In this document: in pieces, positions 9,397-26,349 of the stretch
Numbering within the stretch: the stretch's first letter is position 1
Layout of the letters: each line of letters opens with the position of its first letter
Assembly (NCBI GenBank): GCA_964526175.1
Contig: CAZGIV010000002.1
Span: forward strand, 1 to 45,499
Source: an uncultured Thermoplasmatales archaeon
GTDB lineage: Archaea; Thermoplasmatota; E2; DHVEG-1
DNA: 45,499 bases
Direction: 5' to 3'
Translations under genes and position numbers: made by a program
Notes under the pieces: generated by a model
Told to the model about the DNA's origin: nothing
Databases searched by the model: none
The model's input: only the letters and a program-made list of their open reading frames with translations

Positions 9397-12363
9397 TTAT
9401 CTCCCTTCGTTGCATGGTTCGTAGGTGTTTAACGCCGGGTCACCAAAAAGGATGTATTCCTGGAAGCTGACGTATTTTGATTCCATCATCGGGCTCAGGC
9501 CTTTCGATGCGGTGGTTTTGTATAAATCAGCGTAGTTGTTCTGTGCGAGTGCAAGATCTACCTGTGTGTCTCCTGTGTAGATATTAAGGGGAGGTGACCA
9601 CCAGAGCTGCCAGGGTGCATCTGTAGGCAAATAGCTGTTTTTTGCATTCCGTAATGCTAATCCTACACTGGTGTTGAACTTCACCAGATTGGAACAGAGA
9701 TCTTCATAGATCTTCTCCCCAAAGTGTGCATCAGGGAAGATCCCTTTATTCCACTGGCCTTTCGCTTTGATGTATTTGAGATATGTTTGAATTGGGAAAT
9801 CATATTTTGTTTTCTTTGGCTCAAGGTAACCGCCCCCAATATTTGACCCGGTAGGCGATGCAATAAGAGAAGCGACGCCAGCATGTAATAATGATTGACC
9901 AATATTGGCCCGTGCGTACATTCCATCGAGTTTCCCACAGATACAGCTTTCCAACCACATAAACGATGGCCCAAGATTCATGTTTGAAACGGTTCTTGTG
10001 TTATATTCACCTGCGGAGGCTAAGTCTCCTCCAGGGCCTATGAAACCACCAGCGATCGGTACAATAGTTTTCGTAACCAATGATTTCACAAGTGGCCCAC
10101 CAATTCCTGATGCCACTAAATCATTTCCAGCCACACCAAAGAGAAACTGATTCCCATGACCATTGACAAACAAAAAGTTGCTGGACTCAAAGATATCTCC
10201 GCCTTTAACGCTGCCTTCCCCTGCCAGTCTTCTGACCTGCCATTTTTCAAAGAAGAGCCTGTTTAAGATGTTACTGCTTTTAATTTCGGATAACGTTTGT
10301 TCGCTCAGACCCTTTTCCATACCTTCCTCATATAAAGCCCCCTGCAAGTCGAATCCTAATGGATCAACAACGTCATTTGCAGCTCGCTTATAGGTCATTT
10401 CAGCGTACCCTGTGAAGGCTTTCATAGGTTCGCCACGTTTAATCATTTTAAACAAGTCACCAAAGATGAAGTACCTGACTAACGGTTTTTGGAAATCCTG
10501 ACCTCCTCCAACGATGAGACCGTAGTTATCTTTCCAGGTATTTAGGTTGCTGGTAAGTTCATGATAGAACACGCTTTTGAGTATCAATGCACTTGCATCC
10601 TGAGCATCCCAACCGGTTATCCGACCGACAATGTTTTCAATGAAGGGATATTTATTCTCATTGTCACTATAGACATCGTTCGCTAAATTGGACCAGTCAT
10701 ACGGTATAGGGTCGATATTCCCATAGAGAACATCACTGGGGGTTCCACCACCGTTATAGTAAGCTGTATCATCAATCCCATCTCCATCAATGTCCCCGAC
10801 AGGCTCAGCATGATTTTGGTAGTAGTAATTCGGAAGAACGGTCGCATCGCCTACTAAAGCAATATACACAGGACTATCCTTGTAATAATCTCGTAATCCT
10901 TTGATGTCTCGATCATCATTCAGTGGGAGACTTGCAAGTTCAGCGAGTAAGTTGTTCAAAGGAACATGTATGTGATCAAAAAAATATTTATTTGATATCG
11001 GTACCAGCTTCGGATTTTTTCCACCCACGTAGAGACCAGGGCAGGTTTCTCCAGTATCAGTAATCTTATCATCATCAGCAGTGAACGCAAAATCAGGTGT
11101 ACCATAGATAATCCCCTTATGGTACGCAGTCAAATACGGTGCAACAGAGGATAGACATTTCATCATGGGATAGACAGGGTCTTCGAGTTTTTCGACCACA
11201 ACTCGAGCGGACACTTCCCCTTCTTTTTGTATTAACCAGGTACCGCTAGCAACAATGGTATACTCAACGCCACCTCGTCCATAGACGACTGATTCAGAAT
11301 AAACAACATCTTTGATGATGTTCCCACTTGCGTCCCTTTCGGCGATACCACCTGCATTTGTACCCCCGGGATTTACTTCAAATTTTTTTAAACCGGCTGG
11401 TACTCCTTCTATATTAGGGCCCATCATAAATGATACCTTGTCCCCCATAGTGTCACAATTTTCAGCATCATGGTTCACCCCTTCGAATTTAATCAATGCA
11501 TATTTATAATCCTTAGGGATGGTGAAACTCCAGGTGACCGAACCTTTCCCGGATAACAGCCCAAAAACAGTACTTACAAGCTCGCTCATGGAGCCTGATT
11601 TTATTTTTGTCGGTCCAAAGGTAAACTCCTGACTATCTAACACCATCGGTGGCCAAGCATCCACTGGATTTGTAAGAGTAATATAGTCGACGTTCTGCTT
11701 CAGTTTATTTTCAACAACGATAATCGATGCGTTCAAAACCTCATCAACGGAATTAAATCTTAACACATAACCGAAACCCTTGATATTGTTACCACAGACA
11801 ATGGTTTTTTCCACACCAAGGTCGTTTAGAACGCTAATCACATCAGAATCCATTTCTTTGGTGACAATCACGGGAATCCTCAGATAAGAAGCGATAGGGG
11901 TAGCCAATACACCTAAATCATATCCAGGTTCATCATATTCGATAATTAAGGCTGCTTCACTACTGGTCCAGTAGGTTTTTGCAATTCGTAAAGAGGCGTT
12001 TTCGGCAGATTCATCATCCTTAATTGTTTCACTAGTGAACCCATGGTCTAACTGATCTTGCAGCCGTGTAACCGCTGTTGATGGGTTATCAAAATTCATG
12101 ACGTATAGTGGTATAACTGATTGTTCTCCGTTCTCATTATAATTCACGGACAATGGTGTTGCTATAAGTGGGTAAAATGGACAGCTATCAGAAACAGTAA
12201 TAGAACCAGGCATATCTTTTAAGTTGCCAGTGACATCAATAAATTCATTTGCTCTCACAGGCTGCGATTCTGCGGTATTTGGGACCCAATAATACACACC
12301 AATTGAGGCAAAAATAAGTGTAGCTACGCCTAACACTACAATTATTTTATCATTTTTCATCAT
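9397..12363 (-). CDS. Large membrane-anchored/secreted protein with a C-terminal peptidase C25 (gingipain)-like cysteine-peptidase region
   Basis: 988 aa with an N-terminal hydrophobic anchor (IIVVLGVATLIFASIGVYYW). A putative His/Cys dyad is formed by FLFVNGHGNQ and MWLESCICGK. A T9 run follows the stop on the coding strand. Confidence 0.5.
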   Translation of the reverse strand: MMKNDKIIVVLGVATLIFASIGVYYWVPNTAESQPVRANEFIDVTGNLKDMPGSITVSDSCPFYPLIATPLSVNYNENGEQSVIPLYVMNFDNPSTAVTRLQDQLDHGFTSETIKDDESAENASLRIAKTYWTSSEAALIIEYDEPGYDLGVLATPIASYLRIPVIVTKEMDSDVISVLNDLGVEKTIVCGNNIKGFGYVLRFNSVDEVLNASIIVVENKLKQNVDYITLTNPVDAWPPMVLDSQEFTFGPTKIKSGSMSELVSTVFGLLSGKGSVTWSFTIPKDYKYALIKFEGVNHDAENCDTMGDKVSFMMGPNIEGVPAGLKKFEVNPGGTNAGGIAERDASGNIIKDVVYSESVVYGRGGVEYTIVASGTWLIQKEGEVSARVVVEKLEDPVYPMMKCLSSVAPYLTAYHKGIIYGTPDFAFTADDDKITDTGETCPGLYVGGKNPKLVPISNKYFFDHIHVPLNNLLAELASLPLNDDRDIKGLRDYYKDSPVYIALVGDATVLPNYYYQNHAEPVGDIDGDGIDDTAYYNGGGTPSDVLYGNIDPIPYDWSNLANDVYSDNENKYPFIENIVGRITGWDAQDASALILKSVFYHELTSNLNTWKDNYGLIVGGGQDFQKPLVRYFIFGDLFKMIKRGEPMKAFTGYAEMTYKRAANDVVDPLGFDLQGALYEEGMEKGLSEQTLSEIKSSNILNRLFFEKWQVRRLAGEGSVKGGDIFESSNFLFVNGHGNQFLFGVAGNDLVASGIGGPLVKSLVTKTIVPIAGGFIGPGGDLASAGEYNTRTVSNMNLGPSFMWLESCICGKLDGMYARANIGQSLLHAGVASLIASPTGSNIGGGYLEPKKTKYDFPIQTYLKYIKAKGQWNKGIFPDAHFGEKIYEDLCSNLVKFNTSVGLALRNAKNSYLPTDAPWQLWWSPPLNIYTGDTQVDLALAQNNYADLYKTTASKGLSPMMESKYVSFQEYILFGDPALNTYEPCNEGR

Positions 12364-12535
12364 ATTTTTAATCCCCCATTTAGGATAATAATATCTTTCT
12401 CTGTATATTTGGAACTTTCTATATAATATTTTCTATTATATATATGATAGGGGTTTTGCATATATAACTTTTTGTGAAATGAATATGTTTAAGAAGGAGA
12501 CGATTATTACCACCAACAAAAGGAGAAAAAACAGA

Positions 12536-12913
12536 ATGCCAGGTGAAGAATTATCTCCTCAGCTGCAGGATCAAATCAACAGATTACAACAGGCACGAGC
12601 ACAACTTCAGATGATCTCACAACAACGACAACAGGTGGAACTTCAAATTAAAGAAACCGAAGAGGCATTAAAGGAAATCGAAACAGTCACTGAAAAAACA
12701 CCTATTTACAAAAGCATTGGTGCCTTATTAATTAAAACAAAAGGAAAAAGTGATATTAAAAAGGAATTAACTGCTGCCAAAGAGTCTCTAGAATTGCGAA
12801 AAACAACTTTGGAAAAGCAAGAGGGACGTAGCAGAGAAAAACTCACTGAGTTGCAGAGTAAAGTGGAAAGTTCCTTAAAGTTAGCGGGTGGAGCAGGAAA
12901 CCTGAATGGTTAA
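12536..12913 (+). CDS. pfdB: Prefoldin beta subunit
   Basis: It has a coiled-coil / beta-hairpin / coiled-coil layout (QLQDQINRLQQARAQLQ...PIYKSIGALLIK...LELRKTTLEKQE). I prefer the ATG at 12536, which is preceded by AGGAG, over the upstream ORF start at 12479. Confidence 0.75.
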   Translation: MPGEELSPQLQDQINRLQQARAQLQMISQQRQQVELQIKETEEALKEIETVTEKTPIYKSIGALLIKTKGKSDIKKELTAAKESLELRKTTLEKQEGRSREKLTELQSKVESSLKLAGGAGNLNG

Positions 12914-13199
12914 AAAACATTTTTTCTCAGCACACAATGATCTGAAAACAGGGTTTTTCTGTCGATTTTCTCTGATCATCGGCTGTCTTCTTTTTATTAT
13001 TTACCTCGTGGAAACACTACTCCATCCATTTGGATTCAATGATGATACCATTGGTGCTCTCCTTGCATTTGCGATCCTCTTTTTAGGTCTCGGATTAATC
13101 TTGTATTTCTTTTCGTGTCAATTTACAAAGCTTTCAAAGATAGCAGAAGAAGTTGAAAATGACGCGTCTCTGATGGATAAAGAAGAAACCAAGGAGTAA
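12906..13199 (+). CDS. Small hypothetical membrane protein (2 hydrophobic segments)
   Basis: 97-aa ORF overlapping the pfdB stop by 8 nt. It has two hydrophobic stretches and no recognisable family. Confidence 0.4.
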   Translation: MVKKHFFSAHNDLKTGFFCRFSLIIGCLLFIIYLVETLLHPFGFNDDTIGALLAFAILFLGLGLILYFFSCQFTKLSKIAEEVENDASLMDKEETKE

Positions 13200-14067: not shown

Positions 14068-14228
14068 GGCTCTCAGTGACGGTTTTTGAGAACTAATGAT
14101 GTTCCCTCCAGAGAGTTCAATACCGATGCCATTATATAGATTTAGTGATGATATTCTCTTGAAATAAACATATAATACACAAAAAATGAGATATTGAATA
14201 ATCGTAAATCCCTTAATGGTTAAATCCC

Positions 14229-14945
14229 TTACAATCCAACGTCTTGGGTAGCCTTGGAAAGTTCATGTGTTATTTCTAAAATATCCTTTTCATAGCTTAC
14301 TGGATCTTCAAGTGCCCTGATGGTATCTTCAAGTTCTCGTTTTTCTGCTCCTGTAATACCTTTCACGTCAAGAACCTGCTTTAGCAAAGGAATTGCATCG
14401 CCTCGCCCCTGTTGCACAAAATTATAGGTGAAATCCTCAATGTGGAACCATCCTTTGTATCGCCATGGTTTACTGATAAAATCCTTCGTGATTGAAACCA
14501 TGAAATCATATGGTGCTGGACCAATAATCCCAGTTAACGCACCTACCAAATACGAGTTATATCTTTTATTGTCAAACGTGTCCTCAAGATCTTCGATAAT
14601 GGGGATAATAGAAGAATCTCCGATATCCTGAAGCGCAAACATTGCTTCTTCATTTGCCATGGAATCATCAGATTCTCTTTTTAAAAAACCGATAATCGCA
14701 GGAACTGCCTGGGGGTCTTTGGTTTCACGAAAAATCGTTATCGCAAAAAAACAACTCCAAGTAAATTCAGTACGGAGGAGTTCAATTAGTTCGTGAGTTG
14801 CTTGGTTCCCTAATTGGATAAGTTCTTGGACAGTATTGCGAGCGTACTTTCGGACCTCGTTTTCTTCTTTATTGTAAAATTCCTCGGTATCAAGTGATTT
14901 TAAAAACTCAATATGTTTATTCAGCATCTCTACCTGGTTTTGCAT
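14229..14945 (-). CDS. Hypothetical protein, HEAT-repeat-like
   Basis: 238 aa and predicted to be helical. AVPAIIGFLKRESDDSMANEEAMFALQDIGDSSIIPIIEDL resembles PBS-lyase/HEAT repeats. Confidence 0.35.
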   Translation of the reverse strand: MQNQVEMLNKHIEFLKSLDTEEFYNKEENEVRKYARNTVQELIQLGNQATHELIELLRTEFTWSCFFAITIFRETKDPQAVPAIIGFLKRESDDSMANEEAMFALQDIGDSSIIPIIEDLEDTFDNKRYNSYLVGALTGIIGPAPYDFMVSITKDFISKPWRYKGWFHIEDFTYNFVQQGRGDAIPLLKQVLDVKGITGAEKRELEDTIRALEDPVSYEKDILEITHELSKATQDVGL

Positions 14946-15101
14946 AGGTGCCCCTCAATATAGTAAAGAGATTCTCGTTACTTAAATATTTGTTCATCTT
15001 AGATGGAACGTAATATCCATCAAGCAAATGTCTTTTGATAGAACGAAGAAACCACTGCTGTGAATTGGATAGAGGAACATGTGGAATCGTTCGATAACAC
15101 C

Positions 15102-16295
15102 TTAGTTGGGGTGTTTCGAATTTTTCACAAAGGTGAACAACAAGAGAGAACAAATGCTCAGAGCAAGGGCAAAGAGAAACGTCGCCTGCGGAGAGAACGT
15201 ATCCCAAAGAATTCCTGCGATAAAACCAGCAGGCAGCGCAATTACACCGGTTGCTGTATGGAAGGTCCCTAAGGCAGTACCTTTAATATCAGGGGGGGCT
15301 AAATCCACAACGAAGGCACGCTGTACGCCATCAATGAAGCCAAAGAAAACACCATAGAGAATAAAGACAAATATAAGCATGTACAGCTGCGCGGTGTACA
15401 TAAGGCAAATTGCAGTAGCTGCAAATAAGATATATCCTGCAATAAGAACTGGTTTTCTACCGATTTTATCAGAGAGTATCCCTGCAGGGATGGCACATAA
15501 CGTATACACAATATAAAATAATACATAGAGAAGCAGTGCGATATTATCAGAAAAACCAATGTTTTTTGTCTTTAAGATCAAGAACGCATACCCGAAATTT
15601 GCTAAAGCAAATATGGTTGAAACAAGGATGAATATCTGGAGGTTACGAGGGAGTCGTCTCATACTCACACGAAACGGTATCGACGCTTGTTTCATGGGTA
15701 TGTTTTGTTCGCGTTTCTCTTTGATAAACAGGACGAACAGGACTGCGATGATTCCCGGGAAGAATGCTAAGAGAAAAAGGTCTCGGTACCCAAATAACGG
15801 TAAAAGAATAACTGCGATAATTGCACCGGAAAACGAACCAATACCATCCATTGCTCGTTGGAAACCATACGCTTTTCCCCTCACGGAAACATCCACTGAT
15901 TCTGCGATAATCGCATCTCGTGGCGCATCTCTGATTCCTTTTCCAACTCGTTCGACAACACGGAACAATAGAACAAACGGCCAGGACTGCGCAAATGCAA
16001 AGAGTGGTTTTGTAAGAGAGGAAAGCCCATAACCAGCAAAAACAAATGGTTTTCTTCTCTTAACTTTATCAGACCAATATCCAGAAAAGACTTTAAGCAG
16101 TGAAGCAGTTGCTTCAGCTGCTCCTTCAACAAGACCTACAACCCATGCACTTGCACCAAGGGAGAGTAAAAACAAAGGGACAACAGGAAACACCATTTGA
16201 CTTGAGAGATCAGTAAACAAACTGACAAAACCAACAATAATAATATTCCGAGCCAACCCTTTAAAAAATGACTCTTTGTTCATGGTCTGCCTCAT
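15102..16295 (-). CDS. MFS transporter
   Basis: It has multiple hydrophobic segments and the loop motif GYWSDKVKRRKP (MFS motif A-like), repeated as GILSDKIGRKP in the second half. I chose a start at Met62 (16295) or Met66 (16283). The longer ORF reaching 16478 would overlap the divergent ABC gene. Confidence 0.75.
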   Translation of the reverse strand: MRQTMNKESFFKGLARNIIIVGFVSLFTDLSSQMVFPVVPLFLLSLGASAWVVGLVEGAAEATASLLKVFSGYWSDKVKRRKPFVFAGYGLSSLTKPLFAFAQSWPFVLLFRVVERVGKGIRDAPRDAIIAESVDVSVRGKAYGFQRAMDGIGSFSGAIIAVILLPLFGYRDLFLLAFFPGIIAVLFVLFIKEKREQNIPMKQASIPFRVSMRRLPRNLQIFILVSTIFALANFGYAFLILKTKNIGFSDNIALLLYVLFYIVYTLCAIPAGILSDKIGRKPVLIAGYILFAATAICLMYTAQLYMLIFVFILYGVFFGFIDGVQRAFVVDLAPPDIKGTALGTFHTATGVIALPAGFIAGILWDTFSPQATFLFALALSICSLLLFTFVKNSKHPN

Positions 16296-16402
16296 GGCCG
16301 ATTCAGTAATTTCGTTGTGCACATACGTTTTCTTCGTTTCAGTGTTTCGGTTTGAGGAAGAGAATACCTTAAAAGGAAAAAACAAATACGAGGAACGGGA
16401 GT

Positions 16403-17119
16403 ATGTCAGCAGTTGAAGTAAAAAATTTAGTGAAGAAATACGGGTCAATAGATGCGGTGAAAGGTATCTCGTTCTCAATAGACGAAGGAGAAATCTTTGG
16501 ACTTATCGGCCCGAATGGAGCAGGAAAGACGACGGCCTTACGGGTGATGTCCACCCTTCTGTCAATAAACGGTGGATCGGTCACCATATTAGGATACGAC
16601 CTGAGTAAACAGGCCCCGGAAATCAGAAGGCTTATTAGTTATCTCCCTGAGGATGCGGGGGCGTATAAGAATCTAAGTGGGAGAGCGTATCTGCAGTTCA
16701 TCGCGAATTTCTTTGATCCAAAGGAAGTCCCAGCTATGGTACAAAAAGGTATCGAGATTACGAATCTTGGGGTGCGTATCGATGACCGAGTTGATACCTA
16801 CAGTAAAGGAATGATGCGTCGACTGCTTGTAGGGAGAGCATTAATGACCAACCCGAAACTCGCCATCCTTGATGAGCCGACCTCTGGCCTTGATGTCATC
16901 AACGCTCAGGAGATACGAAAATTAATAAAGTCCACCGCGCAGACCGGTACGACCGTGCTTCTCTCATCCCATAACATGCTTGAGGTAGAGTATCTCTGTG
17001 ACCGAATCGCTTTAATCGCTGAAGGAAAAATAGTTGAAACAGGTAAACCAAAGGCGTTAATGGAGAAATATAAAGCACGTAATATCGAAGAAGTCTTCAT
17101 ACGGACGGTGCATGAATGA
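16403..17119 (+). CDS. ABC transporter ATP-binding protein (ABC-2 type)
   Basis: Walker A is GPNGAGKTT, the signature is YSKGMMRRL and Walker B is ILDEPTSGLD. The stop overlaps the next start. Confidence 0.85.
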   Translation: MSAVEVKNLVKKYGSIDAVKGISFSIDEGEIFGLIGPNGAGKTTALRVMSTLLSINGGSVTILGYDLSKQAPEIRRLISYLPEDAGAYKNLSGRAYLQFIANFFDPKEVPAMVQKGIEITNLGVRIDDRVDTYSKGMMRRLLVGRALMTNPKLAILDEPTSGLDVINAQEIRKLIKSTAQTGTTVLLSSHNMLEVEYLCDRIALIAEGKIVETGKPKALMEKYKARNIEEVFIRTVHE

Positions 17120-18396
17120 GCGGACTAGGAAACATCACAAAAAAAGAGATACGAGAGCTCCTCACACCAGCAACATTCATCCCTATTATCGTTATCGCCT
17201 TGATTTTTGCTACCATGGGAACCAGTTTACAAGGCATGCAAGAACAAGCACAAGAACCACCAATCATCGGAGTCATTTCAGAAGATAACAGCAGTTATAG
17301 TGCGATGGCTTCTACAGTCCTGCATACGTACGCAAAATCAGTGTATAACTCGACATCGACTGCGGATCTACAGATCGGACTCCAGACCGTCGAACAACAT
17401 AACGGGGTCGCAGTCGTGATCATCCCAGGAAATTTCTCAGAACGGATCACAGAAGGACAACAAGGAACCCTTGAAGTGTACTGGATCATGAAAGGCACAG
17501 GCTTAATGGATTCCATCTCCTCAAGTATCCTTGAATCGTTACTTTCGTTCATCAGCACTAACGTTTCAAAAGAACTTATCAAACAGAATTCAACAGTGAA
17601 CGCCTCGTTTGTCCTCTCACCAACACAACGGATTGAAACCACCTATTATAAAAATAGGGAGTTTGCTGGACTTTCACCAAACACGATTTCAGGTATGCTG
17701 ACATCTCAATCGATACTAATCCCAATTGTCATGATGATGATCATCGTTATGGCTGGCAGTATCGTGATTACCTCCATGGCACTTGAAAAGGAAAATAAAA
17801 CTCTTGAGACGTTACTCACCTTACCAGTGAAACGAACCAGTATTGTCACCGGGAAAATTATTGCGGCAGCAATTATTGGATTGCTCCTCGCTGTTATCTA
17901 CATGATTGGAATGCAGTTTTATTTCAGAGGCTTCGAGATGTCAGGCGGAGTGAATCTAGCGGCGTACGGTCTTACCCTTTCCTCAACAGATTTCATTTGG
18001 GTCGGCATCTCACTATTTCTTGCGCTCATCGCAGGGCTTTCACTGTGTATGCTGCTTGGAACCTTTGCGAAGAACTACAAGAGTGCACAAACACTCACCT
18101 TCCCGATAACGATGCTTGCGATGATACCGATGTTTATCACAATGTTCGCAGATTTTGATACCCTCCCCTTACCGATTAAGATATTGACGTTTGCGATTCC
18201 ATTTTCCCATCCAATGATGGCATCACGAGCGTTGCTGTTTGATGATTACATACTTGTCATCGGAGGTATTGTGTATGTTGGTCTGTTTGCCTTGGTTACC
18301 ATTAGCATCGTGGTGTGGGTGTTTAAAACCGATCGATTGCTCACCGGTACAATGAAATTCAAGTGGCTAAAAGCATTAAAACGAAGACGATTCTGA
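17116..18396 (+). CDS. ABC-2 type transporter permease
   Basis: 426 aa. It has an N-terminal TM segment, a large extracytoplasmic loop, then 5 hydrophobic segments. It is coupled to the upstream ATPase gene. Confidence 0.7.
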   Translation: MSGLGNITKKEIRELLTPATFIPIIVIALIFATMGTSLQGMQEQAQEPPIIGVISEDNSSYSAMASTVLHTYAKSVYNSTSTADLQIGLQTVEQHNGVAVVIIPGNFSERITEGQQGTLEVYWIMKGTGLMDSISSSILESLLSFISTNVSKELIKQNSTVNASFVLSPTQRIETTYYKNREFAGLSPNTISGMLTSQSILIPIVMMMIIVMAGSIVITSMALEKENKTLETLLTLPVKRTSIVTGKIIAAAIIGLLLAVIYMIGMQFYFRGFEMSGGVNLAAYGLTLSSTDFIWVGISLFLALIAGLSLCMLLGTFAKNYKSAQTLTFPITMLAMIPMFITMFADFDTLPLPIKILTFAIPFSHPMMASRALLFDDYILVIGGIVYVGLFALVTISIVVWVFKTDRLLTGTMKFKWLKALKRRRF

Positions 18397-18522
18397 TAAA
18401 GAACCATTACTCATTTTCACATACGCTATGGATTAATTAGGAGAAGAAAACAAATATTCCTCTTAGTATGGAGCAAACCTTTTTATAGCGCAACAGCTAC
18501 TCTTTTTGTAAGGGGATAATCT

Positions 18523-20406
18523 ATGAAGAATCATACACATCGTAAAAAATCTCGGATATGGGAGAAAATTAGTGGATGGAAGGGAATCTGGTTCCATCTT
18601 GCCGGAATAATCGCTATCGCTTGGTTTCTCATCCGGGTAGTCCCAAAGCCTCAACGAGCAGAATATCCCTGTCAACAGGTCGCCATGTCGATTTCACTTG
18701 GGTATATCGCATTTTGGAGTATCTTGTTTACGGGTCTTGTTGTCTGGCTACGACATGCAAAGACGAAATTCGCAAAAACAGTACCAACCATGGCTGCTGG
18801 TTTTCTTGTGTTGTTCACCATCACTGGCGCAGTGTTTGCAACGAATTATTTCCAGGGAAACGAACCGGCAGCAGTATCATGGGATCCTATCCCGAAACAA
18901 CCTATGGGTGTAGGAACCGGTGTGAACCCTGGTCGAGTTGTATGGGTGTGGAATCCAAACGCCACAGAAAAGAACCTTGTTGGATATTGGTGGGAAGAGG
19001 AGAACAACAACCAGGCTGTGATTGATCAGATGTTTTCGAATGGTGTTCAACAGCTCGCTGGAATAGCAAATGATTCTGATGCGTGGAATTTAGTTTTTAG
19101 TTATTTTAACGAAGTTCATGGGAATGGAAACGTAGGCTATCAACCAGGGGAAAAGATCGCGATTAAACTCAATTTCAATAACGCGTTAGGTGGTATTGGC
19201 GATCCGTATGTCAAAGAAGATAATGATAGAGATGCAAGCCCGTATGTGGTGAAAGCACTATTACGTCAGCTTGTGAATGTTGTCGGTGTCGCCCAAGACG
19301 ATATTACATTGTATGATGCGTCTCGACCAATACCGAACTGTTTCTATAACCGTGTGTATTATGAGACCTATCCTGCCGATCCATTAGTAGAGGAATTTAC
19401 GCAGATCCATTATGTCGACTCCCTTGGCGGGGCAACCGGTCGTGAGCAGGTAATTTCCAGCTCGACGAAAATGTATTTTTCCGATGGCACAGTCCGAACA
19501 CTACCAACCTGTGTTGTGAATGCAAAGTATATCATTGATATGCCACTACTGAAGCGGCATCCTATTAATTCGGGTGTGACTCTTTCAGGGAAAAACTTTT
19601 TCGGATCGTTCATCGAACCGGTGTCCGATATCCACCCATACCACATATCGGGGTTAACCATGGGGAATCCTGCCCCGCAGGTGGATTTGTTAGCCTATGA
19701 ACATCTTGGTGGAAAAACACTCCTGTTTCTTGGGGACGGGACCTTTGGGACCAAGGTGGACCATAAAACCATTGCAAAGTTTTTGATGTACCCGTTTAAC
19801 GATGATTGGACGAACAGTTTATTCTTCTCACAAGACCCAGTCGCCATCGATTCAGTGATGTATGATTTCTTACTTACAGAAGGAACGAATCCTATTGAGG
19901 GGTCACAGAACTATCTGCATCAAGCTGCAGTTCCTCCTCCAAATGTCTATGACCCTGAAAACGATGGAGTGTATCTGTCAACGAGCCTTGGTGTTCACGA
20001 ACACTGGGACCGGACGGTGAATATCTTCTCAGCAGACCGGTACTCCGGTCCCGCTGGGAACGGGATTGATTATCGCACTTCAGGCGAAGAATATGTAAGC
20101 CCTGGTGTCGTGTTTACCACTCCTCTTGAAAAGCACTTATTTCTATTCGGAACAGACAAAGGAGCGTTCCCCTTCACGGTGATTATCGGGAAAATCGATG
20201 TAGAAGCGCAAGTCAATGGTGATGTTGGAATCGTTCAAAAAATCGAATTTTTCAAAGATAATACATTACAATTCACTGATACTGAGGCACCGTACATTTG
20301 GACGTGGAACAAACTTTCTTTCTTCAGACATACGATAAAAATCATCGCATACTATGATACGGTGAATACGACGAGTAATCAGATGAATGTCTGGAAAATC
20401 CTCTGA
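18523..20406 (+). CDS. Membrane-anchored DUF362 domain protein with a C-terminal Ig-like region
   Basis: 627 aa. DUF362-like blocks are GEKIAIKLNFNN, DASPYVVKALLRQLV, IIDMPLLKRHPINSGVTLSGKNFFG and QDPVAIDSVMYDFL. There are three N-terminal hydrophobic segments. Confidence 0.45.
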   Translation: MKNHTHRKKSRIWEKISGWKGIWFHLAGIIAIAWFLIRVVPKPQRAEYPCQQVAMSISLGYIAFWSILFTGLVVWLRHAKTKFAKTVPTMAAGFLVLFTITGAVFATNYFQGNEPAAVSWDPIPKQPMGVGTGVNPGRVVWVWNPNATEKNLVGYWWEEENNNQAVIDQMFSNGVQQLAGIANDSDAWNLVFSYFNEVHGNGNVGYQPGEKIAIKLNFNNALGGIGDPYVKEDNDRDASPYVVKALLRQLVNVVGVAQDDITLYDASRPIPNCFYNRVYYETYPADPLVEEFTQIHYVDSLGGATGREQVISSSTKMYFSDGTVRTLPTCVVNAKYIIDMPLLKRHPINSGVTLSGKNFFGSFIEPVSDIHPYHISGLTMGNPAPQVDLLAYEHLGGKTLLFLGDGTFGTKVDHKTIAKFLMYPFNDDWTNSLFFSQDPVAIDSVMYDFLLTEGTNPIEGSQNYLHQAAVPPPNVYDPENDGVYLSTSLGVHEHWDRTVNIFSADRYSGPAGNGIDYRTSGEEYVSPGVVFTTPLEKHLFLFGTDKGAFPFTVIIGKIDVEAQVNGDVGIVQKIEFFKDNTLQFTDTEAPYIWTWNKLSFFRHTIKIIAYYDTVNTTSNQMNVWKIL

Positions 20407-20475
20407 TGCCCAGAGTGACTGCGCGGATTCATACTAGGAAATATTTGCAGTTATAACTCTCAGCAATGCATACGT

Positions 20476-21621
20476 TTATGTGATTATTTCATATTTGAAA
20501 ACCCAGGACATGTATTCTTCACCAAAATCAACAATCACATTTGCTGCATTGATCTCATTTTTACCATCATTATCGCAGTCGCCAATGGAGACCACCGCTA
20601 AATCCCCAAATGTTTCATCAATGACGGCTTCTTCTTCATAGGTGGCACCGTTCCATTGGAGGATATGGATGACATCAGTACCTGCACACACCTCAGCGTT
20701 GCCATCATTATCAACATCGCCCACGTCAAGACCCTCGATAAGTAATCCCTCACCAGGCCATTCCTTTTCAAATTTTATTATGTAATCTGAGCCATTCCAT
20801 TCAAAAATTGTTATCCTAGGTGTGTAGAACCCGATATGAATCTCATCGACACCATCCATATCACTATCTTTACAGATACAAGCAAAAGGATGATTTTCAT
20901 AACCTGATGCGGGAGCGTCAACAAGGATGGTAGGATCAAATTGCTTGGCCGGTTTATCCCAGTTCAATATCACAACCTTATTGCCGGATTCAAGGACGAT
21001 TTCATTTTCCCCATCGTCATCCACGTCACCAAGACCTGCCATGAAGACCTCTCCGTTCACACCAACATCATCCCAATCAGCAGCATATTTCACTAATCGT
21101 GCCCCATCCCATTTGAAAACAACGATTTCAGGAACTGACCGTCTCCAGTCACGACAACTCATAATGAGTTCATTCAGACCATCATTATCACAATCACCAA
21201 TGTAACAATCAGGGTTACCACCACCATGCCATTCTACCCATGGATTCCATGCAATAATACGATAACGACCGTTTATGAATTTATGAACCGTTGCGTACCA
21301 TGAAACCGCGATTTCGTTTTCCCCATCACCAGTTAGATCACCGATAGCAAATCCATCTGAGTCAAGACGACGAAACGGAAAGAAAGGACACCGTAATGTG
21401 TGTGTCTGTTCATATGTCTGTGAATTCTCGTTCCATTCCATGACTCGTAACATCGCATCTCTTCCGCCGATAAGCAACTCATTCTCGCCATCGTTATCGC
21501 AATCACCAATTGGCTGTGGTCCTTCATAGCGTGCCCCATAGAACGGGCTTTTTCCATAGCTCATTTCCCATTGGATGTCATACAAATTGGTAGCCACATT
21601 TAACGGTTTTAAATTCTTCAT
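20476..21621 (-). CDS. FG-GAP/VCBS repeat protein (seven-bladed integrin-alpha-like propeller); the N-terminal signal peptide appears to be out of frame
   Basis: Seven Ca-binding-type repeats are present: GDCDNDGENELLIGG, GDLTGDGENEIAV, GDCDNDGLNELIM, GDVDDDGENEIVL, DSDMDGVDEIHIG, GDVDNDGNAEVCAG and GDCDNDGKNEINA. Confidence 0.75.
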   Translation of the reverse strand: MKNLKPLNVATNLYDIQWEMSYGKSPFYGARYEGPQPIGDCDNDGENELLIGGRDAMLRVMEWNENSQTYEQTHTLRCPFFPFRRLDSDGFAIGDLTGDGENEIAVSWYATVHKFINGRYRIIAWNPWVEWHGGGNPDCYIGDCDNDGLNELIMSCRDWRRSVPEIVVFKWDGARLVKYAADWDDVGVNGEVFMAGLGDVDDDGENEIVLESGNKVVILNWDKPAKQFDPTILVDAPASGYENHPFACICKDSDMDGVDEIHIGFYTPRITIFEWNGSDYIIKFEKEWPGEGLLIEGLDVGDVDNDGNAEVCAGTDVIHILQWNGATYEEEAVIDETFGDLAVVSIGDCDNDGKNEINAANVIVDFGEEYMSWVFKYEIIT

Positions 21622-21828
21622 ATCTATTGTGGTATCATTTGAAAAGGCTATTGAGAGGCCACATAATGAAAAAAAATAATGATCAGAGGAATAAACAAAT
21701 GTCTCTTCATAGATTTATTCACCAAGCATCATATAATTTATCGGAATTATAAATATTTCCTTTGATAATTTAAACTGTCGTATCCCGAAATTACTTCCTC
21801 CTAGAAAAAAACCTTTTATAGGAAAATA

Positions 21829-21849
21829 CGGACGTGGCGGCAGTCGAAC
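21829..21849. repeat. att-like direct repeat, distal copy (orphan tRNA 3' fragment)
   Basis: CGGACGTGGCGG (12/12 identical to 24470-24481) is followed by CAGTCGAAC, compared with GATTCGAAC in the tRNA T-arm (7/9). Confidence 0.6.
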
Positions 21850-21858
21850 ATCCCAACA

Positions 21859-21872
21859 GGAGAGAATTTGGG
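21859..21872. repeat. Inverted repeat, left arm (GGAGAGAATTTGGG)
   Basis: It is the reverse complement of 24445-24457 (CCCAATTCTCTCC) except for one extra T. It lies 9 nt inside the left att-like repeat. Confidence 0.5.
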
Positions 21873-22092
21873 CAAGAAAACCCGAAAAAAACGGCTTTTG
21901 AATTTAATCGTTGTTCGGGAAATCGTTTCTATTCTCACTAAAAGCTTTCTCATTTTTTCTTTCTTTTTTTGGAGGTTGAATTATGCAAAGAGAAACAATA
22001 TATGATCGAATGACAATATGTGAAAGAGTATGATATGAAGATTGAAGAGATGGATGATCTGTATCAACAACTCATAGCTAATGTGATGAACT

Positions 22093-22661
22093 ATGGAAAA
22101 GCAGGTTAGAATCTACAACCTTGACATAAACTACAATGTCATTCATCGAGATATTAAATTCCCTAGACTAGAATTCAGGACAGGAAAATTATGTCTCATT
22201 CTCCCAAAAAACTACACGGAATATGATAATCTAATCGAGAAACATCACGATTGGATCTATAACAAAATGACTTTTGTGAACGAAACAGTAAATAAATCCA
22301 CAGAAAAAATAGTACAGACCGAAAAAACAGTTGACGAGTTGAAAGAACTCATATATGACTATGTAAAAAAAATCAGTAAAAAACATAAGATACACCCCCA
22401 AGAAAATCTATTTCAGGAACATGAAATCAAAATGGGGAAGCTGTAGTTCTAAAAAAAAACCTAACGTTCAACACTCAAATGAAATATTTACCAGATGATT
22501 TGATAAAATATGTTGTTCTCCATGAAATGACACACATTATCGAACGAAAACATAGTCGGAGATTCTGGAAAATCATCTCAAAATCGTTTTCAGATTATGA
22601 AAAATACGAGACATATCTATTTCTATACTGGTTCCTAACACAAAAATATCAATGTTCATAA
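22093..22661 (+). pseudogene. DUF45 (YgjP/SprT-like HExxH) metal-dependent hydrolase, disrupted by two frameshifts
   Basis: Frame 1 gives MEKQVRIYNLDINY...KHKIHP. A second frame gives KKIYFRNMKSKWGSCSSKKK, containing the family's WGSC block. A third frame gives NLTFNTQMKYLPDDLIKYVVLHEMTHIIERKHSRRFW, containing the HExxH...H..FW block. The frame changes coincide with C5 (22395-22399) and A9 (22451-22459). Confidence 0.65.
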
Positions 22662-22767
22662 TCCTTAAATGATTGAAATAGGTATCTTAATAAAGACAAC
22701 TAACGGGAAAATAATACTTTCAGTCACCTTAGAGAGACATTAATATCTGTAAATGTAGGTAAAGAAA

Positions 22768-23601
22768 ATGATGATGAGACAGAAATACCTCTATCATTTC
22801 TTACAAAGTACTCATAAGTGTTCAAAAATGAAACTAGCGAAAATCTTCTTCCTTTTCAACACAGAATATTCAATGAACAAACCGTGCAAATTATACAATT
22901 TTGTTCCATATAAATTCGGTCCGTATTCATTCGAACTCTTCCACGATATTGACGCTATGGAACGAGAAAAAATCTTGACAACAGATGCGAACCATATCTA
23001 TTTCATACATGATAATTCCCTACCTAAAATAGACATCTCAGATGATCTAAACCACTATTTGAATAGATTATCCAAATTAACTGAAAAAGAGCTTATCAAA
23101 TATGTCTATGATCGCCATCCAGATTACACCGTCTTCAGTGAAATCGAAAAGAAGAAGCTATTGGTTCGAGATCAAATCGGTATCACAACCATTGGCTATG
23201 AAGGATTATCCATTGATGAATTCTTCATGCGATTAATCCAAGATAAAATCAATACCCTTGTTGACATCAGAAACAATCCCTGGAGCATGAAATACGGGTA
23301 CACAAAACAAACACTCTCAACACTATGTGAAAAACTAGGGATCCAATATCTTAGTACCCCTCCCCTTGGTATTCCAAGTCATTTAAGAAAAAATCTTCAG
23401 ACAAAAGAAGACTACGAAAACCTGTTTGCACATTACGCTACATATTTGAAAACTAGAAAAGAATATCTTGATAACATTATTAAACTTTCAAAAAAACAAA
23501 AACTCGCTCTTATGTGTTTTGAGAAAGATCCACAATTATGTCATCGACATATCCTCGCAGAAGAACTAAAACGACTTGGAGCTGAGGTGACTATTCGATG
23601 A
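22768..23601 (+). CDS. Fusion protein: N-terminal Panacea/DUF4065 (SocA-like antitoxin)-like domain + C-terminal DUF488 domain
   Basis: 277 aa. The N-terminal half has KMKLAKIFFLFNTEY...YNFVPYKFGPYSFELFHDIDAMEREKIL, resembling DUF4065. The C-terminal half has ITTIGYEG.SIDEF, LVDIRNNPWS, LGIQYLSTPPLG and LALMCFEKDPQLCHRHILAEEL, which are DUF488 blocks. The stop overlaps the next start (ATGA, 23598-23601). Confidence 0.55.
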   Translation: MMMRQKYLYHFLQSTHKCSKMKLAKIFFLFNTEYSMNKPCKLYNFVPYKFGPYSFELFHDIDAMEREKILTTDANHIYFIHDNSLPKIDISDDLNHYLNRLSKLTEKELIKYVYDRHPDYTVFSEIEKKKLLVRDQIGITTIGYEGLSIDEFFMRLIQDKINTLVDIRNNPWSMKYGYTKQTLSTLCEKLGIQYLSTPPLGIPSHLRKNLQTKEDYENLFAHYATYLKTRKEYLDNIIKLSKKQKLALMCFEKDPQLCHRHILAEELKRLGAEVTIR

Positions 23602-24362
23602 CCTGGGAGAAAAAGCGAATAACGATTGTCACTAAAGCATATCCGGAATACAGTAAACGCCATGGGAGTGTTGCATGCACTGCTGGAATAACCGAAGATA
23701 ATGAATGGATTCGACTTTATCCTATTGATATGAGACATTTTTCTGGAAGTGTTAAGATCTCAAAATTTGATATCATCGAAGCGGAATGCACACCTGATTC
23801 AGATAAACTCGGGAGAAAAGAAAGTTGTAAGGTAAGACCAGATTCGATTAAAATCATAGACAGAAGTCTAACAAAACCAAAAGTGGACTGGAATCGAAGA
23901 AATGACATTGTTCTTCCTTTACTCAATGATTCTGTTGAATCACTTCAACAAAGCTACCAAGAAAAGAAAACATCACTTGGTTTAATCAAACCGATAGAGC
24001 TTATAGATTTCATCAAAAATGATCCATTACAGATTTACGAAAAGGACAGCTGGTCATTTACCGTTAATCTTGATGGAATGAAAATACCACAGATAACCAA
24101 GATTCCACACATATTCAAATACCGATTTACATGTCAAGGATGTAAAGGACAAGAACACAACATGCAATGTGAGGACTGGGAACTTTTCGAATCATATCGA
24201 AGTTGGGGAAAAACCTACAAAGATCCGAGTATTCTCTGGGATAAATTAAAGTACAAATATTTTGATTGGATGCTCAAAGAGCGGGATTTATATTTTATCA
24301 TGGGGATGTATTCTCAATATCCAACCTGGTTTATTGTTGGACTGTATTGTCCCCCAAAATAA
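23598..24362 (+). CDS. Hypothetical protein, no recognisable family; putative zinc-binding CxxC...H...C motif
   Basis: 254-aa ORF translationally coupled to the upstream gene. The N-terminus is KRITIVTKAYPEYSKRHGSVACTAGITEDNEWIRLYPI. The central motif is FTCQGCKGQEHNMQCEDWE. Confidence 0.5.
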   Translation: MTWEKKRITIVTKAYPEYSKRHGSVACTAGITEDNEWIRLYPIDMRHFSGSVKISKFDIIEAECTPDSDKLGRKESCKVRPDSIKIIDRSLTKPKVDWNRRNDIVLPLLNDSVESLQQSYQEKKTSLGLIKPIELIDFIKNDPLQIYEKDSWSFTVNLDGMKIPQITKIPHIFKYRFTCQGCKGQEHNMQCEDWELFESYRSWGKTYKDPSILWDKLKYKYFDWMLKERDLYFIMGMYSQYPTWFIVGLYCPPK

Positions 24363-24444
24363 AAAAATCAATGTTCTCCATATAATAAAAATTTCGAATA
24401 GGTAAACACGGATAAAAAAAGCACGAAAAAATAGGGTCTTTTAA

Positions 24445-24457
24445 CCCAATTCTCTCC
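24445..24457. repeat. Inverted repeat, right arm (CCCAATTCTCTCC)
   Basis: It is the reverse complement of 21859-21872 and lies 12 nt inside the right att-like repeat. Confidence 0.5.
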
Positions 24458-24469
24458 GAGAAAGAGAAG

Positions 24470-24490
24470 CGGACGTGGCGGGATTCGAAC
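24470..24490. repeat. att-like direct repeat, tRNA-proximal copy (3' acceptor strand and T-arm of tRNA-Arg)
   Basis: CGGACGTGGCGGGATTCGAAC is the complement of the discriminator, 3' acceptor strand and part of the T-arm of tRNA-Arg(TCT). Confidence 0.6.
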
Positions 24491-24544
24491 CCGCGATTAC
24501 CGACTTAGAAGGCCGGTGCCTTATCCAGGCTAGGCCACACGCCC
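24470..24544 (-). tRNA. tRNA-Arg (anticodon TCT)
   Basis: Hand-folded cloverleaf. Acceptor stem is GGGCGTG/CACGTCC and D stem is GCCT/AGGC. Anticodon stem is CCGGC/GTCGG with loop CTTCTAA. T arm is GCGGG-TTCGAAT-CCCGC and the discriminator is G. No CCA is encoded. Confidence 0.9.
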
Positions 24545-24556
24545 AAAGAGAGTAAA

Positions 24557-24644
24557 CGCTGAGGGGGAGATTTGAACTCCCGCTCCCCTTGCGGAGAACC
24601 GGCTCTCAAGGCCGGCGCGGTGGACCGAGCTTTGCTACCTCAGC
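24557..24644 (-). tRNA. tRNA-Ser (anticodon TGA), class II with long variable arm
   Basis: Acceptor stem is GCTGAGG/CCTCAGC. Anticodon stem is CCGGC/GCCGG with loop CTTGAGA. The long variable arm is TTCTCCGCAAGGGGAGC. T arm is GGGAG-TTCAAAT-CTCCC. Confidence 0.88.
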
Positions 24645-24698
24645 AGTGAATCAAATAATGCAAGGGTATAAGATATCCTTATAAAAAGAGTTGTTCTT

Positions 24699-25013
24699 TT
24701 ACGATTTTAACACAATTTCTATGTGAACGCCGTCAGGGACTTGTATCCTCATAAGTTGTCGTAATGCACGATCACTTGCATCCAGATCAATGAGTCGTTT
24801 ATGGATTCTCATCTCCCAATGGTCAATGGTTTCTGTTCCCTCACCATCAGGGGATTTCCGACAAGGAACACGGAGCCGTTTCGTTGGCATCGGAACCGGT
24901 CCTCGAAGTGCGACACCGGTTTTCTCTGCGATCATTTTAATTTGCGTGCACACTTCCTCAAGCTTGGTTGATTCCGTGCTGGTAAGTGAAATTCGTGCTT
25001 TCTGCGCTGACAT
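24699..25013 (-). CDS. rps10: 30S ribosomal protein S10 (uS10)
   Basis: 104 aa, [44 protein letters not shown]. It sits immediately downstream of EF-1alpha, as in archaeal str-type operons. Confidence 0.9.
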
Positions 25014-25065
25014 GTTCGGTTGCCCCTATCTATTATTAAAGAGATAAAAAGAAGAGAGGAGGATG

Positions 25066-26349
25066 TTACTTTACCGCCTCGACTTCTAAACAGACACCAG
25101 CTGCGACCGTCTGCCCCATATCTCTGATGGCAAACCGTCCCAGTTGTGGGATTTTCTTTGACGATTCAATGACCATCGGACGGGTTGGGACAATCTTGAC
25201 GATTGCGGCGTCACCTGTTTTAATGAAATCAGGGTTCTCTTCTTTGACTTGCCCGGTTTTCGGATCAAGTTTCTTTTGTATTTCTTCGAATCTGCACGCA
25301 ACTTGTGCTGTGTAGCAGTGGAAGACAGGCGTGTACCCTTTCGTGATGACAGATGGATGGTTCAACACCATGATTTGTGCAATGAATGATTTGGCAACAG
25401 TTGGTGGATCATTTGCTGGTCCTGCGACGTCCCCTCGTTTGATATCTCCTTTGTTGAGACCGCGGACATTGACACCAATGTTGTCACCAGGCATTGCTTC
25501 ATTAATCATTTCATGGTGCATCTCAATGGTTTTTACTTCCCCAGAAACCCCACCGGGTTTCATACTGGGTTTAAAAACCAGTGTTTGTCCAGGTTTCATG
25601 ATACCGCACTCGACCTTTCCGACTGGAACCGTACCGACACCTTTTATGGTGTAGACATCTTGGATTGGCCATCGCAGTGGTAGGTTCACTGGTTTCTCAG
25701 GCAGGGTGAATTTGTCAATAGCTTTCAAAATAGTATCCCCAGTCCACCAGGTGATTCCTTTTTTATCCTTTATGTTATCTCCCTCGAAAGCAGAGACAGG
25801 GATGAACTGAAGTTGTTCATCTTTGTAACCGACGCTTTTTGCTAAGGTATGGACATCGGCTTTCACCTGTTCATAACGGGCTTTGTCGTAGGGAGGTTTT
25901 GTCGCATCCATTTGGTTAATCGCAACAATCATTTGTTTCACACCAAGGGTTCTGGCAAGGAACATGTGTTCCTTTGTTTGTGCCATGACACCATGCTGTG
26001 CTGCGACAACAAGGATAGCTGCATCTGCTTGGGATGTCCCGGTAATCATGTTTTTAACGAAGTCTCGGTGACCAGGTGCATCAATGATGGTGATGTAATA
26101 TTTGTCAGTGTCAAATCGTTTGTGCGCAACATCAATAGTAACTCCTCGTTCTCGTTCCTCTTTGAGTTGATCGAAAATCCAAGCAAGAGCAAAACTTTCT
26201 TTTCCTTTCGCTTTTGCTTCTTCTCTGAATTTCTCTACCATGTGTGGTGGGAACTGACCGGTATCAAGTAAGATTCTTCCAACGAGTGTGGACTTACCAT
26301 GATCGACGTGACCAATAATTACTAAATTCAGGTGTGGTTTTTCAGCCAT
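25066..26349 (-). CDS. tuf: Translation elongation factor 1-alpha (aEF-1A)
   Basis: 427 aa. G1 is [10 protein letters not shown]3 is DAPGHRDF and G4 is NQMD. GGAGGT lies 7 nt upstream of the ATG. Confidence 0.95.

Follow-up and report, generated by a model that had tools for sequence, protein, structure and literature searches.

The window analysed here is a 45-kb stretch of contig CAZGIV010000002.1 from an uncultured Thermoplasmatales archaeon, whose nearest public sequences are Thermoplasmatales or Thermoplasmatota metagenome-assembled genomes (MAGs); the L-numbered loci cited below are contigs of relatives with which it was compared. An intact tRNA-Arg(TCT) gene on its minus strand (24470-24544 according to Rfam RF00005, 65.2 bits; 24469-24544 according to ARAGORN) adjoins a 2.6-kb A+T-rich islet, 21829-24469, which holds a copy of the tRNA 3′ end, the remnant of a small gene, a frameshifted metallopeptidase pseudogene, an intact two-gene candidate defence operon and the last codons of an integrase gene. 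The anatomy of its attachment (att) sites, the empty sites of relatives, the integrase-bearing elements that share its ends, a free circle of the same family with the attP that had been predicted, and the deletions that distinguish it from a sister copy lead us to conclude that the islet is very probably the decayed, integrase-less remnant of a site-specific integrative element.

The islet is bounded by a direct repeat, one copy of which is the 3′ end of the intact tRNA gene. The 12-mer CGGACGTGGCGG, which the original prediction had placed at 21829-21840 and again at 24470-24481, does occur at both positions and at no third site in the window even when one mismatch is allowed (0.07 copies expected by chance; two or more copies in 0 of 100 shuffles). 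Similarity extends beyond the 12-mer, as had also been noticed: the left and right 21-mers, CGGACGTGGCGGCAGTCGAAC and CGGACGTGGCGGGATTCGAAC, are identical at 19 of 21 positions, and a degenerate search for the 21-mer with up to three mismatches returns the same two window sites only, against an expectation of 0.00. The left copy constitutes attL (21829-21849, plus strand), in which the 12-bp core equal to the tRNA-Arg 3′ end (21829-21840) is followed by nine element-derived nucleotides, CAGTCGAAC; the attR core (24470-24481) is formed by the 3′ end of tRNA-Arg(TCT), whose version of the 21-mer occupies 24470-24490. The 12-mer had been described as exactly the discriminator plus the acceptor strand of the tRNA, and by our reading of the sequence it does comprise the discriminator and the 7-nt 3′ acceptor strand, but it also spans 4 nt of the T-stem. 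The frequency of the 21-mer had been named as a check, and the sequence proved to be rare. The exact 21-mer ending in CAGTCGAAC is present in four contigs among 185,579 species genomes, all of them Thermoplasmatota, and in 22 metagenome contigs, including one evident chance match (L028, within a G+C-rich long open reading frame, ORF) that was discarded; L028 apart, the identifiable contexts are Thermoplasmatota-like, and the named or annotated ones are at the tRNA-Arg locus. Cassettes or elements in more than 25 contigs have the same 21-mer at their distal end, and a search of IMG/VR viral contigs with the 21-mer and the integrase returned no match.

The composition of the islet is unlike that of its host. 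Its interior (21850-24469) has a G+C content of 33.7%, compared with 42.5% for the rest of the window, which corresponds to z = -5.1 with respect to same-length windows outside the islet (minimum 38.0%), and its tetranucleotide distance (0.377) exceeds the maximum observed elsewhere for the same size (0.248). The A+T-richness suggested earlier by spot counts is borne out by this comparison.

Both ends of the interior are conserved in other genomes. Arm b (21850-21982, plus strand), the attL-proximal element end, includes GGAGAGAA (within 21859-21872) as well as the region upstream of the first element gene; it could be aligned in 17 loci, with many invariant columns, and in these loci the 21-mer is followed by ~130 conserved bases and, in most of them, by a gene of ~122 codons. 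Across 21823-22028 the window is 81% identical to L012, the homology ending at 22028. Arm a (24404-24469, plus strand), the attR-proximal element end, corresponds to the last ~22 codons of an integrase ORF and holds TTCTCTCC (within 24445-24457); it is conserved ahead of the core, on the tRNA side, in 13 loci, and can be aligned with what follows the integrase in L026, L065, L069, L076, L077 and L079. The inverted repeat reported inside the two ends, GGAGAGAATTTGGG (21859-21872) and CCCAATTCTCTCC (24445-24457), is indeed found 9 nt and 12 nt inside the repeat copies and is complementary except for one extra T. Taken alone it is unremarkable, there being 52 inverted pairs in 4.2 kb; its GGAGAG/TTCTCC part is kept at homologous element ends in many other genomes. 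The position and conservation of these TTCTCC...GGAGAG motifs suggest that they may serve as recombinase-binding sites.

Immediately past arm b lies the remnant of the ~122-aa gene (21983-22033, plus strand; tblastn match 21989-22027), reduced to 16 codons followed by a stop, with MQRETIYDRMT... in the window facing MQRESVYDRMTNAEKEV... in L030 and others. The gene has no Pfam match and a weak PDB sequence match to T7 endonuclease I (E = 0.69), and a small PD-(D/E)XK-like nuclease is no more than a guess; the product may instead be an element-specific factor. It sits directly after arm b, as the first gene past attL, in for example L015, L016, L018, L022, L023, L024, L027, L029, L030, L032 and L034. 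In L031 (~780-1434) it is interrupted after ~50 codons, and sub-threshold matches to the Rfam group II intron domains RF02001 (28.6 bits, E = 0.0015) and RF01998 (28.5 bits, E = 0.0081) are seen there. The next gene of the islet (22093-22661, plus strand) is a pseudogene of a YgjP-like (DUF45) zinc metallopeptidase with two frameshifts, one at ~22425-22430 and the other in the A9 run at 22449-22457. Its C-terminal ORF alone matches PF01863 with E = 8e-14, and the match improves to E = 1.3e-27 once the gene is rejoined across the frameshifts, which establishes that the frameshifted gene noted in the interior is real and gives it an identity. An independent assembly (L006) has the same N-terminal 117-aa frame.

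The two remaining genes are intact and had been regarded as orphans, a description that does not hold, given that they match the PADLOC models for PDC-M19A and PDC-M19B (PDLC04505, E = 5.9e-76, and PDLC04508, E = 9.8e-54, respectively) and that PDC-M19B has 260 homolog clusters. They lie side by side on the plus strand and overlap by 4 nt. PDC-M19A (22768-23601, 277 aa) combines an unassigned N-terminal domain with a C-terminal DUF488 domain (Pfam, E = 3.7e-29) and also matches PHROG 14939 (E = 2e-35). Residues 8-74, in its N-terminal half (window 22768-23190), weakly resemble, at E = 1e-4 to 6e-4 in PADLOC, a region of DarG and type I specificity subunits, which hints at a shared small domain that lacks a Pfam name. 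PDC-M19B (23598-24362, 254 aa) is predicted to contain tandem oligonucleotide/oligosaccharide-binding (OB) folds, and has conserved Cys/His residues (C179, C182, H187 and C191 are invariant); it has no Pfam or PDB sequence match. Its AlphaFold2 model (pLDDT 90.4) was matched by Foldseek to domains of Teb1, RPA and HIN-200 (E = 2e-4 to 3e-3, TM-scores 0.23-0.33), a resemblance to tandem OB-fold DNA binders that, at such low TM-scores, is predicted at fold level only. PDC-M19 is listed in PADLOC-DB v2 as a two-gene phage defence candidate proposed through guilt by embedding (Payne et al., bioRxiv 10.1101/2024.01.29.577857), PDC systems having been predicted on the grounds that their homologs are embedded in BREX, DISARM or type I restriction-modification loci (bioRxiv 10.1101/2024.01.29.577857); the name 'PDC-M19' was encountered in no searchable paper. 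The window pair agrees with the PADLOC system in that both models are strongly matched by adjacent, overlapping genes on the same strand, but it differs in lying outside any BREX, DISARM or type I restriction-modification locus, as the cargo of a decayed element beside a YgjP-like pseudogene. PDC-M19A/B may be selected cargo, a candidate defence operon that persists as something useful or addictive to its host.

Decay of the islet from an integrase-bearing element can be read from its own sequence and from that of a sister copy. As originally stated, the interior contains no recombinase gene; the last codons of an integrase nevertheless survive at 24404-24469. Translated in frame through the core, this segment yields HEKIGSFNPILSEKEK-RTWRDSNPRLPT, with RTWR encoded in the core, and agrees residue for residue with the C-terminal end of P0007, an intact 448-aa integrase (L080). 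The sister copy, L026, carries the same PDC-M19 cargo at the same site, with 86.6% identity over 1.8 kb. Within 370 nt that are missing from the window it retains a 104-aa C-terminal integrase remnant (phmmer E = 4e-40 to the L069 integrase), and it lacks in turn the sequence corresponding to window 21906-22563. Such reciprocal deletions indicate independent erosion from a fuller, integrase-bearing ancestor, and the L026 remnant, together with the last integrase codons of the window, substantiates the earlier notion of a decayed integrated element.

The intact members of the family document what has been lost. A recombinase gene lies inside the element, by the attachment site, in L066, L069, L076, L079 and L080, and as the remnant mentioned above in L026; integrase genes stand immediately upstream of arm a and the tRNA in L066, L069, L065, L076, L079 and L080. 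The L066 integrase scores 43 bits against PF00589, and the family integrases align with XerA of P. abyssi (PDB 4a8e) at the catalytic R, the YxxR motif, H and the tyrosine nucleophile Y. Only PF00589, and not PF16795, was detected in them, and their homologs fall into more than 230 clusters, some of which are named 'site-specific integrase [Thermoplasmatales archaeon]'. Complete integrated elements, from attL to attR, occupy 276 to 10887 of L079 (10.6 kb) and 1184 to 11087 of L076 (9.9 kb). Furthermore, contigs L081, L082 and L083 (Logan, three runs, SRR26074187 to SRR26074189) represent a single sequence, 100% identical, in different rotations, and the two ends of L081 overlap by 30 nt, as do those of L082, which together reveal a free circle of 9,517 bp. 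The attP of this circle consists of arm a, CGGACGCGGCGG CACTCGAAC and arm b, with TTCTCC/GGAGA on either side of the core, so that the proposal of inner arms flanking a single core in a circularised form is vindicated at the level of the family. The circle encodes the family integrase and a serine recombinase (Resolvase, E = 5e-40), the rest of its genes being unrecognisable, and no conjugation genes were recognised in the ~10-kb parent elements. As judged from sequence, the members of the family are ~10-kb episomes, plasmid-like or virus-like, of uncultured Thermoplasmatota. The larger integrase-bearing elements sharing the ends of the islet that the original prediction had suggested looking for therefore exist, both integrated and as a free circle. 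Related integrases beside tRNA-Arg were also seen with other defence-like cargo: in L077 (2993-11330) with a PLD-helicase and an MmeI/Eco57I-type methyltransferase, in a different neighbourhood that contains ribosomal proteins S9 and L13, and in L080 (2977-6117) with an SLFN/AlbA_2-HATPase protein.

Empty sites, another check that had been put forward, were located in L042, L070, L074 and other relatives. L042 (DATLAF010000132), the closest relative found, is 90.9% identical to the window over 14178-20408 and 92.5% identical over 24466-25755. Its 627-aa gene is followed directly by a small membrane-protein gene and that in turn by tRNA-Arg, where the window has 20409-24465 instead. In L070 and L074 only 12-13 nt separate the end of the 627-aa gene from the tRNA. 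Two further loci, L027 and L029, retain that host flank (...aaggtctggaaaatattctga...) up to the core, and then continue with CAGTCGAAC and arm b, which is element sequence, instead of the tRNA. The host flank that L074 shares with L027 and L029 up to the core thus provides a clean comparison of an unoccupied attB with an attL.

The following course of events would account for these observations. A family tyrosine recombinase would insert a circular element into the 3′ end of tRNA-Arg(TCT), with attP (arm a, core, arm b) and attB (the tRNA 3′ end) recombining within the 12-bp identical core, in which the crossover presumably falls. Integration would leave the tRNA intact at attR (24470-24481), and a copy of the core with nine element bases at attL (21829-21849). 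Later deletions removed the integrase but for its last ~22 codons (24404-24469) and the first element gene but for 16 codons (21983-22033), and two frameshifts disabled the YgjP-like gene; what is left is the intact PDC-M19A/B candidate defence operon and the two attachment sites, each with its conserved inner arm. A cognate integrase acting in trans might still excise or move the islet, in the manner of a cis-mobilizable element (CIME).

Several observations weigh against this account or parts of it. Neither the islet nor the 45-kb window contains a recombinase gene, which leaves present-day mobility unsupported. No circle junction of the window's own islet was found in the assembled contigs searched, and among the 22 metagenome contigs with the 21-mer a junction of window-type arm a with window-type arm b is never seen except in a chromosomal array. 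None of the complete integrase-bearing elements sampled carries PDC-M19 or YgjP cargo, so that the link between this cargo and the integrase elements comes from the L026 remnant and the shared arms. As DNA, neither arm a nor arm b folds better than shuffled sequence (z = -1.1, 0.35 and 0.07); a hairpin or terminator in the arms was accordingly dropped as a candidate, and the role of the arms as binding sites is argued from position and conservation. Lastly, the variable segment to the left of the islet (20409-21828), which has normal G+C and comprises a gene for an FG-GAP repeat protein (20476-21621, minus strand; Pfam FG-GAP_3) and a 207-nt spacer, also differs from the closest relative. Homologous replacement of a whole interval is consequently possible, and everything from the 627-aa gene to the tRNA may have arrived in this lineage by that route and not by integration.

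In several relatives the tRNA-Arg locus harbours tandem arrays of mini-islets, cassettes of 0.6-2.6 kb with one to three genes each and the exact 21-mer in between. Their genes encode MazF/antitoxin, ParE/antitoxin, an AAA_14/DUF4143 ATPase, an ATPase_2/DUF234 protein and PDC-M19. Read from attL towards the tRNA, L011 has a MazF/antitoxin cassette, L001 the AAA_14/DUF4143 ATPase and then MazF, L013 MazF and then RHH/ParE, L076 ParE and then the 9.9-kb integrase-bearing element, and L079 an older arm remnant and then the 10.6-kb element, a set of orders that fits repeated insertion into the tRNA-proximal attR. A degenerate arm a is kept by several small cassettes (L014 and junctions in L001, L017 and L020), and with such remnants at their junctions the small cassettes also look like decay products. 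An older arm a remnant of the L036/L031 type was sought in the window at 21740-21828 and rejected, local alignment scores of 16-17 not exceeding those of shuffled controls (up to 23-26). The identity of the MazF cassette tracks that of the host flanks, and with divergence in step with hosts there is no evidence of its recent horizontal spread. The only mosaic signal seen concerns L001 and L025, which are 99.8% identical across tRNA/S10/EF-1alpha, 99.1% in the MazF cassette and 83% left of the array, the ATPase cassette and the FG-GAP gene being present in L001 and not in L025; this jump in identity places a recombination breakpoint at the array. In L030, a degenerate tRNA-like site (5568-5588, CGGACGTGTCTGGATTCGAAC) directly follows the gene of the 627 family, 1.8 kb to the left of a normal arm a/21-mer/arm b junction, and may be a decayed older attL or a tRNA fragment.

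The anatomy described so far can be extended or reinterpreted in several ways. One extension of decay from an integrative element holds that the islet is an active, non-autonomous element of the CIME type, moved by the integrases of co-resident or incoming ~10-kb elements. It would make sense of the intact attL, attR and conserved arms and of the patchy distribution of the islet, which is present in the window and in the more distant L026 and absent from the closer, cleanly empty L042; cognate integrases and a free episome circulate in related populations, and those archaeal integrases that have been assayed in vitro integrate and excise without accessory factors (PMC8371274). Yet no circular junction of the islet occurs among the assembled contigs, and the independent deletions and ~13% divergence between the window and L026 are what long residence and decay in situ would produce, which counts against current mobility, while the divergence of the MazF cassette in step with its hosts suggests mostly vertical inheritance of mini-islets. 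Patchiness can be explained as well by homologous replacement of the whole locus, of the kind seen in L001 and L025 (99.8% on the right, 83% on the left). We regard ongoing mobility as doubtful, with some support for gain or loss of the islet on a speciation timescale, given its absence from the closest relative and its presence in a more distant one. A comparably modest probability attaches to the idea that homologous recombination in the conserved flanks brought in both the islet and the FG-GAP segment, from a strain already carrying the islet. The entire interval 20409-24465 differs from the closest relative, beyond the part bounded by att sites, the islet is closer to its L026 copy (86.6%) than the left-flank genes are (78-80%), and L001 and L025 show that breakpoints do occur at the array. 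Such an event would nonetheless concern the last transfer only, the att anatomy still calling for an original site-specific integration. The FG-GAP segment, moreover, is shared with L001 (84% amino acid identity), which has different cassettes, so that segment and islet have separate histories; in L042 its place is taken by the ~100-aa membrane-protein gene.

A more radical departure would turn the locus into an integron-like gene-capture platform, at which a resident recombinase inserts small cassettes with a minimal 21-bp site. The ordered arrays of 0.6-2.6-kb cassettes split by the exact 21-mer in relatives invite this comparison, and so does an order consistent with tRNA-proximal insertion (ParE between MazF and the tRNA in L013, the 9.9-kb element between ParE and the tRNA in L076); as in integron arrays, small cassettes of one to three genes, often for toxin-antitoxin or defence functions, are lined up by a fixed site with the newest apparently proximal. 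We nevertheless judge it very unlikely. Integrases are found inside large elements and not at a fixed resident position, the repeat is tRNA-derived and shows no attC-like palindromes, and cassette genes occur in both orientations, which makes a shared promoter unlikely. The degenerate arm a of small cassettes and the two element-gene remnants in the window islet fit the decay of full elements instead, and with neither IntI, attI, attC nor Pc the locus does not qualify as an integron. Least credible of all, to the point of being negligible, is the notion that the repeat arose by chance or was left by a tRNA duplication, with no mobile element behind it. An exact repeat of 12 nt is not long, and duplication can give rise to tRNA fragments, but the expectations of 0.07 for the 12-mer and 0.00 for the degenerate 21-mer speak otherwise, and the recurrence of the same 21-mer and arms at the locus in many genomes, beside integrase genes and in the attP of a circular episome, refutes it.

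The attachment site of the family falls within a reading frame. The integrase ORF of intact copies extends across arm a and the core onto the tRNA antisense strand, where it ends in ...RTWRDSNPRPLA, and the called integrase of the circle (P0013, 474 aa) reads across attP into arm b. The frame that passes through the core remains open for 47-65 codons past it in all 17 arm b copies, whereas the other two frames mostly stop after 13-36 codons. The observation covers window 21829-22005 and 24404-24508 and the integrase 3′ ends of L069, L076, L077, L079 and L081. Integration thus appears to swap a post-catalytic tail of ~55 residues for a short tail encoded by the tRNA antisense strand; in the integrated copies L069 and L079 the whole catalytic domain, including the tyrosine, is on the tRNA side, and only the post-catalytic tail is exchanged. 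The arm a variant of L031 has a stop before the core, and the core-spanning frame is therefore not universal. A coding interpretation of arm b is suggestive only; its DNA is also conserved in the role of a promoter region. With attP inside the 3′ end of the integrase ORF, two integrase isoforms would follow, and they lend themselves to a speculative proposal to which we assign a rather low probability. In this lineage the 3′ end of tRNA-Arg(TCT) would be a chronological gene-capture site at which integrase-less mini-islets with toxin-antitoxin and defence genes, requiring hardly more than the 21-bp site, are exchanged in trans by the integrases of ~10-kb episomes, and the episomal isoform, with its ~55-residue arm b tail, and the integrated one, with its short tRNA-antisense tail, might determine in which direction recombination runs. 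Archaea would then have their own counterpart of CIME accretion, one that shades into integron-like behaviour.

Among known systems, the islet is closest in kind to the CIMEs of bacteria, which arise in three steps: an element integrates, it decays but retains attL and attR, and a new element is then added by accretion (PMC5704250). The arrays of the relatives match this path. CIMEs and tandem accretion are described for ICESt1/ICESt3-type islands of Streptococcus thermophilus (Pavlovic 2004 and Bellanger 2011, as summarised in PMC5704250). The islet answers to the CIME definition (PMC5704250) in having lost its integration genes and kept attL and attR at the 3′ end of a conserved gene, and its derivation by decay from an autonomous element with the same att sites is indicated by the L026 remnant, by the arms held in common and by the end of the integrase within arm a; L001, L013, L076 and L079 have tandem arrays that fit accretion. 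It differs in its archaeal host, in parents that appear to be ~10-kb episomes with no recognised conjugation genes, and in that mobilisation of the islet is only a candidate property. Archaeal integrative elements of the pNOB8 type likewise target tRNA genes (She et al. 2002 and 2004, as reviewed in PMC8371274), and share with this family the R...YxxR...Y signature, the tRNA 3′ target, a catalytic part that is left whole by integration, and chromosomal decay. The family core, however, is identical over 12 bp, compared with the 40-50 bp quoted for pNOB8 integrases of Sulfolobales (PMC8371274); 12 bp is near the short end of the 8-60 bp quoted for archaeal elements, with a lower limit of 8-11 bp (PMC8371274). 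Further differences are an att core inside the integrase 3′ reading frame and an uncultured Thermoplasmatota host, and no description of the family was found. Suicidal integrases of the SSV type (SSV1, pTN3, pT26-2; PMC7253208, PMC8371274) resemble those of the family in having the site within the integrase ORF, a gene product changed by integration, an archaeal host and a tRNA target, but the family exchanges only ~55 codons after the catalytic tyrosine, has YxxR and not KxxR, and matches only PF00589 and not PF16795, and does not belong to this type. No description of elements integrating into tRNA-Arg in Thermoplasmatota came up, no literature search having been aimed at them.

The kind of the islet is therefore ordinary, a decayed, tRNA-borne integrative element equivalent to a CIME and with candidate defence cargo; its novelty lies in the element family and the use of tRNA-Arg(TCT) as target in uncultured Thermoplasmatota, in the mini-islet arrays, and in a natural setting for the candidate system PDC-M19. 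An unexplained A+T-rich patch is converted into a specific set of attB, attL, attR and attP, and an uncultured archaeal group gains an integrase family along with a free episome. Small modules for defence and toxin-antitoxin functions emerge as the probable last survivors of decayed elements at one tRNA hot spot, which helps to explain archaeal 'defence islets'. The integrase and its att pair are short and well defined and might serve as a genetic tool for Thermoplasmatota, and the apparent exchange of integrase tails offers a small idea on how the direction of integration may be controlled.

To the right of the islet, the flank made up of tRNA-Ser(TGA) (24556-24645), ribosomal protein S10 (24699-25013) and EF-1alpha (25066-26349), all on the minus strand, is conserved and syntenic in the relatives compared, and the flanks also hold other housekeeping genes. 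Lower-G+C patches (0.34-0.38 in 500-nt windows) occur elsewhere in the window as well, at 2001-3000, 12001-13000 and 41001-42000, each of them shorter and less extreme than the islet.

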